Sequence record: PP400782
Length of the DNA stretch: 64,000 bases
Origin: Escherichia phage FL31
Direction: 5' to 3' (one strand)
The notes below the pieces were generated by a model that was not told the origin of the DNA, did no database searches, and saw only the letters and a list, made by a program, of their open reading frames with translations. Within the stretch, counting starts at the first letter, position 1, and each line of letters starts with the position of its first letter. A program made the position numbers and the translations under genes. Below are positions 42,483-50,716 of this stretch, one piece after another.

Positions 42483-43616
<1,134 letters not shown>

Positions 43617-43632: not shown

Positions 43633-43662
43633 ATTGTACCACAATCCTTGTGGTATGTAAAC
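43633..43662 (-). promoter_or_regulatory. early promoter for rnlA
   Basis: Minus strand GTTTAC, 18-nt spacer, TGTGG-TACAAT; the -35 overlaps the denA stop. Confidence 0.6.
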
Positions 43663-44072
43663 TACTTTTTCTTATGTTGGATATTCCAAGGCGGGTTGAA
43701 CTTTTTGATAAAAAGCGGTTCTTCAAGGTCCATTGTTGCGATGGTCATTGAACCAAGTTCGTTGGTGACTGAAAGGTCAAAACATTGGCGGGCCCAGAAT
43801 TCAACCTTTTTGCCTTGCATTAAGGCATCCAAAATCATAAGTGATTTTCTTGAATCTGAAGTCTGGTCTTTTCGATTTATGGCTGTTCGATAATAGTTAA
43901 TGCGTTTCTTTAAATTCTTGGTTTTACCAATATACACAAGTTCGTCATCTATAGCAATAGCATATATGACATTTTTCTTATTAGGGACATCAACTGTTTT
44001 AATTGTTGCATCTTCTAATAGCTCCAATTCTGTATATTTAATAAAGGAATATTCGGCGGCGATATCTTTCAT
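43662..44072 (-). CDS. denA: endonuclease II (GIY-YIG)
   Basis: 136 aa, the same as T4 EndoII; GIY-YIG block VIYAIAIDDELVYIGKT. Confidence 0.85.
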   Translation of the reverse strand: MKDIAAEYSFIKYTELELLEDATIKTVDVPNKKNVIYAIAIDDELVYIGKTKNLKKRINYYRTAINRKDQTSDSRKSLMILDALMQGKKVEFWARQCFDLSVTNELGSMTIATMDLEEPLFIKKFNPPWNIQHKKK

Positions 44073-44080
44073 AATAAAGT

Positions 44081-44094
44081 GGGACCGAAGTCCC
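44081..44094 (-). other. C(UUCG)G hairpin between nrdB and denA
   Basis: Minus-strand GGGAC-UUCG-GUCCC 5 nt after the nrdB stop and 8 nt before the denA ATG. Confidence 0.5.
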
Positions 44095-44098
44095 GTCC

Positions 44099-44601
44099 TT
44101 AGAAATATTTTTTGTATGAATTGATTACATTTTGGTCTACATCATTATCAATTTGTGCGACAAGATAAGAACTGATTTCAACTTCCTGAGGAGCTGCTTG
44201 AACTAAATCAGAGTTCAGATATTCACGAATCCAAGGATACGGATGCTTGGTCGGAGCATCAGTAATTGGACATGGCAAACCACACTGTTTCATACGAGAC
44301 ACAGTCAAGTAATCAACAAAAGCACACATACTCTGCGTATTGATACCTGGACATGTACCATCTTTAAAGAGGTGTGCAGCCCATTCCTTCTCTTGACTAT
44401 TTACTTCCATAAAAATGTCAACTGCTTCTTGTTCACATTCTTTAGCAATTTGAACCCACTCATCACCGTCAGTACCAGATTGAAGTTGACGGATAATGTA
44501 CTGAGTACCCTTGAGATGGAGTTGTTCGTCACGAGCAATGAACTTCATAATCTTTGCATTACCTTCCATAATTTCCATGTTCTTATGGAAGTTAAAGGTA
44601 C
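44099..44601 (-). CDS. nrdB: ribonucleotide reductase small subunit NrdB, exon 2
   Basis: Encodes ...MEGNAKIMKFIARDEQLHL... (diiron ligands E..H) through the C-terminus. The 5' boundary is inferred so that the splice restores conserved FAC-TFNF and gives 393 codons in frame. Confidence 0.75.
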
Positions 44602-44737
44602 CGTTATGTTCGATTGAGCTCGCTAATTCTCAACCCGTTCTCTTATGAACTGCTACATATTACTATGCAGACCAGACTATATCACAATCCCAGAGGGATT
44701 CTCCCCATTTCGAGTCGCTTGACCCTACGTCCGAAGA

Positions 44738-45547
44738 CTAGTCGTTGAACCTTGCTTTGCAATTGTCGCCGTGCCATCGTTTATATGTTGATGGTGATAA
44801 ATCTTTCTTATCACAATATGGACAATTCAATTGAATTCTATTTGGATTTAATTTACATCTATCATTATGTTTTAGATAAAATCCAGGACCTTTACCAATG
44901 TGACCGCAGAAATCACATGTGATTTCTTTTTGTGCAGGATGGGTTCCGTTCTTAACCATTTCTAATGTTTTTGCTGATGTTCTTTTCTTATGGTCTTCTG
45001 ACAAGAAATGATGTGAACCGTCATTTACCCGTTTTGATTGAGTTTCTGACTGCATTTTACCACCGCAAAATACATGAGTACCTTCTTTTATAGCTGCAAT
45101 ATTGCGTTCTTTAACTTTTGCAATATGCTCAGCTTGTTGAAAATTATGTATACCTAATGCAACTCTATTTAAATTAGATTTACGCTGTATTTCACCGTCT
45201 AAAAGATGAAATGTACCATTTTCTATCTTAGATTTAATAGAGGCAATATTTTTAGCTCGTACTTCAGGGATATTAAAAATCTGGATTTCTCTAGATTTTG
45301 CGGCTTTAGAAGCTAATTCAGAAATTTCTTCAGGAGAATATTTCATTCTAAGCTTTATAGCGTGACAAGCCTGGTAATCTTTTTGAGCTAAATGTATATC
45401 ATAATGTTCCTGTATAGAAAGGCACATCAAATTATCTAAATCATTATTTTCACGGTTACCGTCTTTATGATGGATTTCGTATGTTCTTCCATCAGAATCT
45501 TTAGGTATAGGTCCGTTAGCATCTATCCAAATTTTTCTATAGTTCAA
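44738..45547 (-). CDS. intron-encoded HNH homing endonuclease (I-TevIII-like), intact
   Basis: 269 aa; HNH motif EIHHKDGNRENNDLDNLMCLSIQEHYDIH; C-terminal Cys clusters (CDFCGH...CPYC...C) suggesting zinc fingers; apparent TTG start with AAGAGGA SD; TATAAATA 28 nt upstream. Confidence 0.75.
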   Translation of the reverse strand: MNYRKIWIDANGPIPKDSDGRTYEIHHKDGNRENNDLDNLMCLSIQEHYDIHLAQKDYQACHAIKLRMKYSPEEISELASKAAKSREIQIFNIPEVRAKNIASIKSKIENGTFHLLDGEIQRKSNLNRVALGIHNFQQAEHIAKVKERNIAAIKEGTHVFCGGKMQSETQSKRVNDGSHHFLSEDHKKRTSAKTLEMVKNGTHPAQKEITCDFCGHIGKGPGFYLKHNDRCKLNPNRIQLNCPYCDKKDLSPSTYKRWHGDNCKARFND

Positions 45548-45574
45548 TTGTGCATCCTCTTAAAAGTATAATCA

Positions 45575-45582
45575 TATTTATA
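45575..45582 (-). promoter_or_regulatory. late promoter inside the nrdB intron driving the homing endonuclease ORF
   Basis: Minus-strand TATAAATA 28 nt upstream of the endonuclease start. Confidence 0.55.
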
Positions 45583-45692
45583 TTATACTAATTAAAGGTG
45601 CAAGCAAAACCTTGGCTGCTAGTTTTCCTATAAAGGACTTTCCAGCAATTAAAGGAGTTTTCGATAAACGTTACCGTTTAAAGGCGCATTTT

Positions 45693-46368
45693 ACGCAAAA
45701 GATACATAAAAACGAATAGCTTCTAAGGCATTAATAACGTGTAAACAGAGGTAAAGAGATTTCATTAAAGCACGTTTAGCTTCGGCTTCTTGTTTAATAG
45801 CTCGGTTTAAACGAAAATCAGCATCAGGAGATTCTTTAGCTAGTTCTACAAATTCTTTAGCATTTTCCCAATAACGAGTTTTAACCAGAACATCATCGTA
45901 ATATTTACCTATTGATTCAGCTCGTTTCATGATTGCTTCGTCTAATACAATCTCATCAAATACCTTAGATGGATCGGTATAAAGATTTCGCATAATATGA
46001 GTGTACGAACGAGAGTGAATAGTTTCACTGAATGTCCATGTTGCAACCCACGTATCTAATGAAGGGTCGGAAATCAGTGCCATAAGTACCGCAGATGGGG
46101 CCCTGCCTTGGATAGAATCTAATAATGATTGATACTTAAGATTGTTTGTAAAGATGTCCTGTTGGAACTGAGGAAGCTTATTGAACTGCGCAGAGTCCAA
46201 CATCAAGTTTACCTCTTCTGGGCGCCAGAAAAACGACAATTGCTTTTCAATAAGTTCTTCAAAAACTTTATGTCGCTGAATATCATAACGTGCGAGGCCA
46301 AGACCAGAACCAAAGAACATTGGTTCATTCAAAACATCGACTTGTTGTGTGTTAAAAACTGTACTCAT
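45693..46368 (-). CDS. nrdB: ribonucleotide reductase small subunit NrdB, exon 1
   Basis: Starts MSTVFNTQQVDVLNEP... at the first ATG (the track start 46380 is GTG); R2 fold motifs; ends at the inferred 5' splice site. Confidence 0.75.
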
Positions 46369-46406
46369 TATATTTCTCACTTAGTTATTAACTCATCCAT
46401 GAGTAA

Positions 46407-46430
46407 ATTATAATCAAAAGTCTTAAAGCT
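46407..46430 (-). promoter_or_regulatory. candidate middle promoter for nrdB
   Basis: Minus strand reads AGCTTTA, 11-nt spacer, TATAAT, overlapping the nrdA stop region. Confidence 0.3.
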
Positions 46431-48705
46431 TACAAGCAGAACAATCTTCAGCTTTAGGTGTTTCTAATTCATAGTCATCTGTACCTGACCCATCACGGGT
46501 GTTATGATAGTAGAGGTTTTTTCCGCCAAAGTACCAGAAGTAAAGCAGATCGTCAAGCATTACTGACATTGGCACTTTACCTTTCTCAAATACTGCAGGG
46601 TCATAGTAAGTATTAGCAGAAGCAGATTGGCACACCCATTTCAACATGATAGCAACTTGGGTCAAATAAGGTTTATTACCTTTCTTAGCAAGTTTCCACG
46701 CGTAGTCGTAAAGACTCATGTTATGTTCTATATTAGGAACAACCTGTCGGAAGTTGCCTTCTTTAGATTCTTTAATACTTACTGGACCACGTGGGGGCTC
46801 AATCCCGTTTGTAGAGTTCGATACTTGACTGCTTGACTCACAAGGCATGAGTGCAGACAACGTTGAGTTACGAATTCCATGTTCTTTGAGTTCAGCTCGA
46901 AGTTCTTCCCAGTCACAGACATAGTTCGGGGCTGCGATTTGGTCAATCTTTTTATTGTACCAGTCGATAGGTAATTCGCCTCTAGACCATTTAGTGTCTG
47001 AATAATACTCACAAGGTCCTTTTTCTTTGGCGAGTTTGATTGATGCTTTGATAAGGCCATATTGCAATCTCTCGAACAATTCATGGGTCAAATCGTTAGC
47101 GTCTTCATATGAAGCAAAGTTAGAAGCTAACCATGCAGCATAGTTCGTCACACCAACACCAAGATTACGACGCTTTTTAGCTTTTAAAGCTTCTGGAACC
47201 GGATAATCTTGATAGTCTAACAGGTTATCAAGTGCACGTACTTGTACTTCAGCAAGTTCATTAATTTTATCTTGGTCTTGCCAATCAAATTTATCTAATA
47301 CAAAAGCAGATAATGTGCATAAACCAATTTCAGCATCAGGACCATTCACATCATTAGTTGGAATAGCGATTTCACAACATAAGTTACTCTGACGAATTGG
47401 AGCTTTTTCACGAATAAACGGAGTGTAGTTATTCGTGTTATCAACAAACTGTGGATAAATTCGAGCAGTGCCAGAACGTTCAGTCATGAACAATTCAAAG
47501 AGTTCTAGTGCTTTGATTCTTTTCTTTCTGATTGTTGGGTCTTTTTCAGCTTTCTCATAAAGCTCACGGAATTTATCTTGATCTTCAAAGAACGAGTAGT
47601 ATAGTTCGCCTGACATTTCGTGAGGGCTAAATAAAGTAATATAATCATTTTTACCAAGGCGTTCCATCATAAGGTCATTAATCTGAATTCCGTAGTCCAT
47701 ATGTCGAATACGGTTTTCATCCACGCCTTTGTTATTTTTCAGAACTAATAGGTTCTCTACTTCTAAGTGCCACATCGGATAATACGCTGTAGCAGCACCA
47801 CCACGAATACCGCCTTGAGAACAAGATTTTACTGCAGTTTGGAAATGTTTCCAGAATGGAATAACACCTGTATGTCGAACTTCACCCATACCGATCTTAG
47901 AACCTTCTGCACGAAGCATACCAACGTTGATACCAATACCAGCTCGTTTAGAAATATATTCAATAATTGATGCTGAAGTTTTGTTAATAGATTTTAACGA
48001 ATCACCGGCTTCAATAACTACACAACTAGAGAACTGGCGAGTCGGAGTACGAGCACCTGCCATAATTGGAGTTGGCAATGAAACTTGATGAGTAGAAACG
48101 GCATCATAAAAACGAATAATATGTTTCAAACGGTCATGAGTTTCGTCTTGGTGTAAGGCCATACCAATAGCCATGATAGCAAACTGCGGAGTTTCATAAA
48201 TCTTACCAGTTGTTTTATCTTTAACCAGGTATTTTTCTTTAAGCTGCATAGCACCAGCATAAGTCAGGTCAAAGTCTCGTTCATGTTTAATCTGTGAATC
48301 GAGATAAATGATTTCTTCTGCTGAATATTGAGACAACAGCTCAGGGTCATATTTGCCTTCATTAACACAGTAAGAAATATGGTCGATAAAAGCAGGTGGT
48401 TCAAACTGCTCATATACATCTTTACGAAGTGCAAACATTAGACCTTTGGCGGCGACATACTGATAATCAGGTTCTTCGACAGAAATCGAGTTAGCTGCAA
48501 CTTTAATACAAATCTTCTGAATATCTTTGGTGCTCATCCCATCAACCAGATGAGTCTTAATTTCTTCATACAATTCGTATGGGTCAATTTGTGTTCCTTC
48601 ACATTGCCAAGTTAAGACTTGAATAATTTTCTGTGCATCAAAATTTTGTGATACACCACTGCTCTTAGTTACTTGCATATATTCCTCGGATAGATTGATA
48701 GACAT
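46423..48705 (-). CDS. nrdA: ribonucleotide reductase large subunit NrdA
   Basis: 760 aa; active site SNLCCEIAIPT; C-terminal redox pair CSACKL; long collinear match to recalled E. coli NrdA. Confidence 0.95.
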   Translation of the reverse strand: MSINLSEEYMQVTKSSGVSQNFDAQKIIQVLTWQCEGTQIDPYELYEEIKTHLVDGMSTKDIQKICIKVAANSISVEEPDYQYVAAKGLMFALRKDVYEQFEPPAFIDHISYCVNEGKYDPELLSQYSAEEIIYLDSQIKHERDFDLTYAGAMQLKEKYLVKDKTTGKIYETPQFAIMAIGMALHQDETHDRLKHIIRFYDAVSTHQVSLPTPIMAGARTPTRQFSSCVVIEAGDSLKSINKTSASIIEYISKRAGIGINVGMLRAEGSKIGMGEVRHTGVIPFWKHFQTAVKSCSQGGIRGGAATAYYPMWHLEVENLLVLKNNKGVDENRIRHMDYGIQINDLMMERLGKNDYITLFSPHEMSGELYYSFFEDQDKFRELYEKAEKDPTIRKKRIKALELFELFMTERSGTARIYPQFVDNTNNYTPFIREKAPIRQSNLCCEIAIPTNDVNGPDAEIGLCTLSAFVLDKFDWQDQDKINELAEVQVRALDNLLDYQDYPVPEALKAKKRRNLGVGVTNYAAWLASNFASYEDANDLTHELFERLQYGLIKASIKLAKEKGPCEYYSDTKWSRGELPIDWYNKKIDQIAAPNYVCDWEELRAELKEHGIRNSTLSALMPCESSSQVSNSTNGIEPPRGPVSIKESKEGNFRQVVPNIEHNMSLYDYAWKLAKKGNKPYLTQVAIMLKWVCQSASANTYYDPAVFEKGKVPMSVMLDDLLYFWYFGGKNLYYHNTRDGSGTDDYELETPKAEDCSACKL

Positions 48706-49020: not shown

Positions 49021-50716
<1,696 letters not shown>

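Follow-up and report, generated by a model that had tools for sequence, protein, structure and literature searches.

The window analyzed here is a 64,000-nucleotide stretch of DNA from Escherichia phage FL31 (sequence record PP400782). Its minus strand carries a T-even-type gene order of rnlA (42483-43607), denA (43662-44072), nrdB, and nrdA (46423-48705), and the nrdB gene is present as two exons separated by an insertion (Table 1). The first nrdB frame opens with the ATG at 46368 and extends to ...RFYVSFA before it terminates at a TAA (45693-45691). The second exon restarts at 44601 with GU ACC UUU AAC UUC CAU AAG, and joining U45693 to G44601/U44600 creates a UGU cysteine codon within a 1179-nt CDS. 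The predicted spliced junction reads UUUGCGU from exon 1 followed by GUACCUUU from exon 2. The spliced NrdB aligns with Escherichia coli R2 (1piy and others) with E = 1.5e-127, and the AIRFYVSFAC-TFNF segment of the phage protein pairs with AIRFYVSFAC-SFAF of the bacterial protein without a gap at the junction. The conserved host frame is intact after intron removal, and the resulting gene has the same length as the intronless nrdB of phage mar005P1 (1179 nt). A preliminary description prepared from the sequence alone had proposed two in-frame nrdB segments about 1.09 kb apart, a cysteine codon remade by joining U45693 to the GU at 44601-44600, and an intron that follows an exonic U and ends in G. 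The alignment with R2 and the boundaries determined here agree with each of these proposals and place the intron at exactly 44602-45692. Its count of 393 codons has the correct CDS length and includes the stop codon; the NrdB protein is 392 amino acids long.

Table 1. Features of the nrdB locus in the window. Positions are numbered from the first nucleotide of the window.
Feature	Position	Strand	Sequence or pairing	Basis
nrdB exon 1, 676 nt	45693..46368	-		Ends in U before the 5' splice site; aligned with RB3 and T4 nrdB
nrdB exon 2, 503 nt including stop codon	44099..44601	-		Junction-spanning alignment of the spliced protein with E. coli R2
Group I (IA2-type) nrdB intron, 1091 nt	44602..45692	-	AAAAUGCGCC at start, ...AACAUAACG at end	RB3 identity, RF00028, paired structure
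5' ribozyme segment	45600..45696	-	P1, P2, P3, P4, P5, P6, 5' strand of P6a	Hand pairing versus MFE fold; RF00028; pair counts
3' ribozyme segment	44602..44760	-	P6a', P6', P7, P7.1, P7.2, P3', P8, P7', P9, P9.1, P9.2, terminal G	RF00028; fold; pair counts
P1			Exon GCGU with intron G6-C9 (GCGC); U(-1).G6 pair at splice site	Hand-assigned
P2			AAACG/CGUUU, GUAA loop	Hand-assigned
P3			CUCCUU/GGGGAG	Hand-assigned
P4			UGCUGG/CUAGCA	Hand-assigned
P5			UCCU/AGGA	Hand-assigned
P6			GCC/GGU	Hand-assigned
P6a			UUGCUUGC/GCAAAGCAA, carries ORF	Hand-assigned
P7			GACUA/UAGUC	Hand-assigned
P7.1, P7.2, P8, P9, P9.1, P9.2			GUAA loop on P9	Hand-assigned
I-TevIII gene, 269 aa	44738..45547	-	TTG start; predicted to loop out of P6a	HNH_3, RB3 identity
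T4 late-promoter consensus	45575..45582	-	TATAAATA	Last base 28 nt upstream of TTG
Candidate MotA-type middle promoter	45582..45606	-	TGCTTGCA box, then TATAAT at 45582-45587	Overlaps late promoter
Predicted RNA hairpin	45551..45602	-	Shine-Dalgarno AAGAGGA (45555-45561) paired with upstream CCUUU	Fold; model of PMC2988022
Intron copy of homing site, putative I-TevIII operator	45592..45609	-	TTTTGCTTGCACCTTTAA versus TTTTGCGT|GTACCTTTAA	Sequence match
RB3-type patch in Mosigvirus-type nrdB	44558..45862	-	Intron with ~170 nt upstream (exon 1) and ~44 nt downstream (exon 2)	Site-by-site comparison

The insertion was compared column by column with the nrdB intron of phage RB3, and 1087 of the 1091 positions are identical. 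The four substitutions all fall within the ORF; three are silent, and the fourth gives Y23 in the window in place of the D23 of RB3. The non-ORF 5' ribozyme segment matches RB3 at 145/145 positions. Over the 3' segment, whose 176 nt take in the final 40 nt of the ORF, the match is 176/176. The 598-nt T4 intron is the same sequence shortened by 493 nt, with 491 of the missing nucleotides removed from the ORF by one deletion, and its ribozyme portions are 100% (5') and 96.6% (3') identical to those of the window. The alignment with RB3 and T4 proposed in the preliminary description thus reveals the same element in all three phages, and T4 does carry a truncated form of the endonuclease ORF, as that description stated. 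The insertion is almost certainly the mobile group I intron of T-even nrdB in its full-length RB3-type form, which encodes I-TevIII.

A 1301-nt query consisting of the intron and ~100 nt of each flanking exon was searched with megablast against 50,697 phage records. The search matched 577 records, and in 84 of them the alignment extends over 80% or more of the query; RB3, RB5-RB10, and many recent isolates are among them. These phages have the ORF annotated as I-TevIII or 'intron-like DNA endonuclease', and in one database genome the whole query aligns with 99.8% identity. A tblastn search detected full-length I-TevIII in 87 records, T4-like truncated copies in ~30, and distant relatives only in 9. 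The element is found in Tequatrovirus, Gelderlandvirus (S16), and Dhakavirus (Bp7), and in truncated form in Mosigvirus (AV114). The S16 copy is the most diverged, with ribozyme segments that are 96.6-97.2% identical to those of the window and an ORF that is 86.6% identical at the DNA level. The higher conservation of the ribozyme over the ORF is consistent with constraint on the RNA. The element in the window is therefore already known: it has been in the literature since 1991, its biochemistry was worked out in 2007, and dozens of database genomes carry it. The first description of the RB3 nrdB intron with I-TevIII is reportedly that of Eddy and Gold (1991, Genes Dev 5:1032), with the sequence in GenBank X59078.

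Ribozyme core and predicted splicing

Rfam covariance models run over the whole window at gathering thresholds returned no match. With E-value thresholds, RF00028 (Intron_gpI) matched the 3' half of the intron with 35.4 bits (E = 4.9e-7) compared to a gathering score of 50, and the alignment encompasses J6/7-P7 (GUUCAACGACUA), P3', P8, J8/7-P7' (GAUAUAGUC), and P9. The 5' 128 nt searched alone in truncated mode aligned with model positions 1-125 (22.5 bits, E = 3.4e-4) across P4, P5, and P6, with the AAUUGCUGGAAA and CUAGCAGCC elements aligned. The two matches together account for the conserved catalytic core (P3-P8, with the P4/P6 and P3/P7/P8 domains and the P/Q/R/S elements). The T4 nrdB intron, which is proven to self-splice, was used to calibrate these scores and reaches 35.7 bits with RF00028, which is also below the gathering score. 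Because the proven T4 intron falls short too, the sub-threshold score is explained by the large ORF insertion and does not mean that the core is absent. The RF00028 model does not handle an 800-nt ORF insertion in P6a, which makes a score below gathering uninformative, and the gathering-threshold miss was rejected as evidence against an intron.

Helices were assigned by hand (Table 1), and an MFE fold of the ORF-less mini-intron independently recovered 53 of the 63 hand-assigned pairs. The pairs that the MFE fold misses are five in P7, which form a pseudoknot beyond the reach of the method, and five in P1 and in P2, which is refolded in the MFE structure. The hand structure was judged only by its pair overlap with the MFE fold, because the energy computed for it is meaningless: a single bracket type has no notation for the P3/P7 pseudoknot. 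Seven introns from four genera were aligned, and the 71 pairs are standard in 99.8% of the cells; all core pairs are standard in 7/7 introns. The same alignment contains two compensatory pairs and two one-sided changes with 66/71 pairs invariant, a modest covariation signal that 13/500 shuffles equal. The compensatory changes convert A-U to G-C in P2 of S16 and in P9 of T4, and the one C.A mismatch is in P6a of T4. The last ~23 nt of the I-TevIII ORF, including the UAG stop codon, lie within the P6a', P6', and P7 strands. The folding and Rfam checks suggested in the preliminary description accordingly yield assigned P1-P9 helices and a detectable group I core in both ribozyme halves, with a score below gathering as for T4.

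The mechanism proposed for splicing follows from published work on the RB3 and T4 introns. The pre-mRNA would fold as an IA2-type ribozyme with a 5' part that contains P1-P6, a 3' part that contains P6'-P9.2, and a P3/P7 pseudoknot, and the I-TevIII ORF would loop out of P6a. An external guanosine would attack after the exonic U, which P1 holds in a U.G pair; docking of the terminal G and ligation of the exons would follow and produce the mRNA for the 392-residue NrdB. The T4 nrdB intron self-splices (Gott et al. 1986, cited in PMC2790892), and the 96.6-100% identity of the ribozyme segments to those of T4 predicts guanosine-dependent self-splicing of the intron in the window.

An alternative interpretation is that there is no spliced intron, and that a free-standing endonuclease gene splits nrdB into two separately translated halves or a pseudogene. 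This arrangement would fit the many GenBank records that annotate two nrdB CDSs ('beta subunit x2') and a homing endonuclease, the in-frame ATG inside exon 2 at 44578, and the lack of an Rfam match that reaches the gathering score. The boundaries, however, carry the U.G pair (U(-1).G6 in P1) and the terminal G (G44602 as the last intron base) that group I splicing requires, and the ribozyme halves are identical to those of RB3 and 96.6-100% identical to those of the self-splicing T4 intron. Removal of the intron also restores the conserved FAC-TF segment of R2, and both the curated T4 record and the RB3 reference genome annotation give a joined nrdB CDS, in RB3 with I-TevIII inside and again with a TTG start. 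A split nrdB is extremely improbable on this evidence. For annotation, nrdB is a single joined CDS with I-TevIII and not the two 'beta subunit' fragments found in many related GenBank records; beyond correct annotation, the finding has little consequence.

The I-TevIII gene and its expression signals

The Pfam HNH_3 domain matches residues 4-48 of the intron ORF with 48.7 bits (E = 6e-13), and the encoded protein is identical to RB3 I-TevIII at 268/269 residues. Both reading frames begin at the same TTG and share a stop codon located within P7. Residues H26, H27, N39, and H48 are catalytic in RB3 I-TevIII (PMC1865063), and all four are present in the window protein. The RB3 enzyme acts as a dimer and has two CX2CX12-13HX3C zinc fingers (C211/C214 and C242/C245) that bind zinc and DNA (PMC1865063). 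Both fingers are found in the window protein at residues 211-231 and 242-263, and the eight residues mutated by Robbins et al. (H26, H27, N39, H48, C211, C214, C242, and C245) are all retained. I-TevIII has its HNH nuclease domain at the N terminus, and its C-terminal domain, with the two zinc fingers, serves in DNA binding and dimerization. A PDB sequence search with I-TevIII found no relevant solved structure, and the sole match (E = 0.29) is unrelated. A Pfam FlgM match in the middle of the protein (26.2 bits, cutoff 25) is most likely a chance hit to a helical charged stretch. The RB3 intron is mobile and its homing depends on I-TevIII (PMC1865063, Robbins et al. 2007), and by analogy the FL31 enzyme is predicted to cleave intronless nrdB.

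It is very unlikely that the intron splices but encodes an inactive or decaying endonuclease that leaves the element immobile like that of T4. Only residue 23, three positions before the catalytic H26, differs from the RB3 enzyme that was assayed; it is Tyr in the window and Asp in that enzyme. Decay of the ORF does occur in nature; T4 and AV114 have large deletions, and U5 has a 2-nt deletion together with a partial loss of the late promoter. The window ORF nonetheless has its full length and has lost none of the tested catalytic and zinc-binding residues, and phage PTE-Eco05 encodes a protein 100% identical to it in the Y23 form. The presence of the identical protein in at least one other phage makes Y23 an unlikely mark of a defective enzyme. 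The best of the 87 full-length tblastn matches are 99.6% identical, a difference of one residue that may come from nothing more than the TTG start codon, and the S16 ORF has remained open and full length despite 89.2% protein identity over 268/269 residues and the DNA divergence noted above. The RB3-type patch in the exons (Table 1) also shows that the element moved into its present nrdB background, and an intact I-TevIII remains the preferred reading.

The expression signals of I-TevIII are clustered upstream of its start codon. A Shine-Dalgarno GAGG (45556-45559) is located 8 nt upstream of the TTG and is preceded by an exact match to the T4 late-promoter consensus. The late promoter is identical in the window, RB3, T4, S16, and Bp7, is altered to AATAAATA in AV114, and is partly deleted in U5. 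The octamer occurs 18 times in the window compared to ~7.4 copies expected by chance, which is weak evidence on its own. The middle and late promoters of all three T4 intron endonucleases have been located by primer extension (review PMC2988022). A candidate MotA-type middle promoter overlaps the late promoter, and the homologous stretch in phage fPS-2 is annotated as a 'predicted middle promoter'. A sigma-70 promoter scan of the region found 8 sites compared to 10.4 expected from shuffled sequence, and T4 late and middle promoters are outside the scope of that tool.

Regulation of intron endonucleases by a hairpin that sequesters the ribosome-binding site is a published model (PMC2988022), and the corresponding RNA segment in the window folds with dG = -17.9 kcal/mol (z = -3.45), a stability that 0/200 shuffles attain. 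The late promoter sits inside the hairpin, and late transcripts would therefore be without its 5' arm. In early and middle read-through transcripts, the hairpin would hide the I-TevIII ribosome-binding site, whereas transcripts from the internal TATAAATA promoter would begin inside the hairpin and leave the site free. I-TevIII is probably made late in FL31, as the published RB3 and T4 work indicates for those phages. The same region contains an 18-nt copy of the sequence across the insertion site that is identical at 16/18 positions, and 0/500 shuffles reach that level. An autorepression operator for I-TevIII has been proposed and not demonstrated (PMC2988022), and the insertion-site copy is a putative operator of this type.

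The preliminary description is supported by these features in its intact HNH endonuclease ORF of 269 residues with C-terminal Cys clusters, which correspond to the two zinc fingers, in its TTG start with a good Shine-Dalgarno sequence, and in its late promoter 28 nt upstream, which RB3 and T4 share. Its reading of the ORF as the intact form was also correct, and what it missed is the identity with the published RB3 form (PMC1865063) that is present in dozens of sequenced phages.

The RB3-type patch in nrdB

The relationship of the window nrdB to RB3 changes abruptly along the gene. Identity to RB3 is 81% over CDS positions 1-495, 96.7% over the 181 nt adjoining the intron, and 99.6% over the intron. 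Exon 2 is 100% identical to RB3 over its first 31 nt and 78.8% identical after that point. Outside this region, the window nrdB is 99.5% identical to the intronless Mosigvirus allele, and Mosigvirus-type phages match the distal exon sequence at 99-100% identity. The boundaries of the patch were mapped from the positions that distinguish the intronless mar005P1 allele from RB3. The window is of the mar005P1 type up to CDS position 498, with an isolated RB3-type site at 405, and again from 723 on. Over CDS 507-720 it is of the RB3 type at every such position but 708. Through the patch, 21 amino acids of NrdB have been replaced between residues 172 and 200. Phage mar005P1 has an intronless nrdB and no mobE, and its nrdA-nrdB spacer is that of the window apart from a 1-nt indel; mobE is likewise absent between nrdA and nrdB of the window.

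The sharply bounded patch has the form of a co-conversion tract. Repair of a cut allele from an intron-bearing allele would copy the intron and flanking exon sequence into the cut allele, and the RB3-type patch may be read as the footprint left when the intron homed into a Mosigvirus-type allele that lacked it. Compared with the canonical target, the intronless allele has synonymous changes at -38, -32, -14, -8, -2, +20, and +23. It appears reasonably likely that an RB3-type Tequatrovirus intron homed between genera into a mobE-less Mosigvirus-type nrdB that differed at -14, -8, and -2, and that the converted tract replaced the 21 residues. If this is true, I-TevIII tolerates target variants at -14, -8, and -2, and homing reshapes the protein sequence of NrdB, an essential enzyme. 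The mosaic thus suggests that I-TevIII is able to invade alleles with synonymous target differences.

The intron could instead have arrived by ordinary homologous recombination or by MobE-driven trans-homing and not by I-TevIII cleavage. MobE mobilizes the defunct T4 intron in trans (PMC2790892), RB3-type donors have mobE adjoining nrdB, and a recombination patch alone does not tell which nuclease cut. However, mobE was not co-transferred, and both the spacer and exon 1 up to the patch boundary have retained their mar005P1-like sequence. The patch is also short and centered on the I-TevIII cleavage and insertion sites, and the I-TevIII gene is intact. These features make arrival without I-TevIII unlikely, and homing by I-TevIII is the favored origin of the patch. 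The patch is a natural example of exon co-conversion with intron homing that is mildly useful, and the co-conversion mosaic and the mobE-less context are only small points beyond a known element.

Comparison with known systems

The window intron and the RB3 nrdB intron have in common the host gene, insertion site, 1091-nt length, TTG start, late promoter, hairpin, and 269-residue HNH/zinc-finger protein. The two phages differ in the surroundings of the element. In RB3, mobE separates nrdA from nrdB and the nrdB is of the Tequatrovirus type; the window is without mobE and, outside the patch, its nrdB is of the Mosigvirus type. The T4 nrdB intron shares the insertion site, the splice-site sequences, and the promoter, Shine-Dalgarno, and start region with the window. 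It differs by the 491-nt loss from the ORF, through which I-TevIII is frameshifted, without its HNH domain, and defective, and by the compensatory change in P9 and the mismatch in P6a described above. The T4 intron is immobile by itself and depends on MobE for mobilization in trans (PMC2790892).

The td and nrdD (sunY) introns of T4, which encode I-TevI and I-TevII, are likewise phage group I introns in genes of nucleotide metabolism with a looped-out endonuclease ORF; the td gene of the window has no intron. These two T4 introns also share internal middle or late promoters, a hairpin that sequesters the ribosome-binding site, and a proposed operator (PMC2988022). The endonucleases themselves are distinct: I-TevI and I-TevII are monomers of the GIY-YIG family, whereas I-TevIII is an HNH enzyme that acts as a dimer (PMC1865063, PMC2988022).

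The nrdB mosaic and its flanks

The FL31 nrdB gene is a mosaic in which an RB3-type patch surrounds the group I intron. The remaining nrdB backbone is ~99.5% identical to that of mar005P1, a Mosigvirus with an intronless nrdB, and the patch alters 21 NrdB residues (172-200). RB3 and T4 carry the free-standing HNH endonuclease gene mobE (or nrdB.1) between nrdA and nrdB, whereas mobE is absent from this interval in FL31. The 54-nt spacer is the same as that of mar005P1, which also lacks mobE, except for a 1-nt indel.

The last codons of nrdA contain a TTGTAA-17-TATAAT arrangement with a GCTT motif ahead of it. The nrdB middle promoter is retained at the nrdA 3' end in mobE-less phages (PMC2790892), and the motif fits this description as a candidate nrdB middle promoter. 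At the other end of the gene, the interval between the nrdB stop codon and the denA start holds a GC-rich hairpin, capped by a UUCG loop and with a T-run after it, that looks like a candidate intrinsic terminator. In the fPS-2 record, an annotated terminator extends from the end of nrdB into the beginning of denA.

Coordinates of features in FL31 (PP400782) and in comparison phages
Feature	Source	Position
nrdB-denA hairpin	FL31	44081-44094
RB3-type patch in nrdB	FL31	44558-45862
FlgM match in I-TevIII	FL31	45206-45328
Mini-ORF	FL31	45545-45555
nrdA-nrdB spacer	FL31	46369-46422
Promoter motif	FL31	46407-46435
td	FL31	49021-49881
Split nrdA	PTE-Eco05 (L003)	1188-1898
nrdA 3' fragment	fPS-2 (L004)	1-581
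Annotated terminator	fPS-2 (L004)	2896-2934
Late-promoter and I-TevIII ORF deletions	U5 (L006)	alignment A3 columns 139-151 and 342-343

Interruptions of td and nrdA

The td gene is one unbroken 286-aa ORF that covers the full Thymidylat_synt profile, and therefore FL31 lacks the td intron and I-TevI despite having the nrdB intron. FL31 nrdA is also a single ORF (760 aa). PTE-Eco05 has the same nrdB intron as FL31, and its nrdA is annotated in two pieces with another homing endonuclease gene between them. The fPS-2 nrdA annotation is a 990-nt 3' fragment only, which suggests that this gene is split similarly; the interrupting gene would lie beyond the stretch retrieved.

The I-TevIII reading frame and its decay in other phages

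A three-codon mini-ORF (AUG CAC AAU UGA) directly follows the Shine-Dalgarno sequence of I-TevIII, the intron-encoded HNH endonuclease. Its UGA stop overlaps the I-TevIII TTG start (AUUGA), and the mini-ORF stretch is identical in all seven aligned nrdB introns (FL31, RB3, T4, S16, Bp7, AV114 and U5). Residues 74-114 of I-TevIII match the Pfam FlgM (anti-sigma-28) family with a score barely over the cutoff (26.2 bits versus 25); the hit probably arose by chance from a helical, charged linker.

Phage U5 lacks 9 nt in its copy, including part of the T4 late-promoter consensus TATAAATA upstream of the TTG, and a 2-nt deletion frameshifts its I-TevIII ORF. In U5, I-TevIII has decayed independently, by a different route from the large deletions in T4 and AV114.
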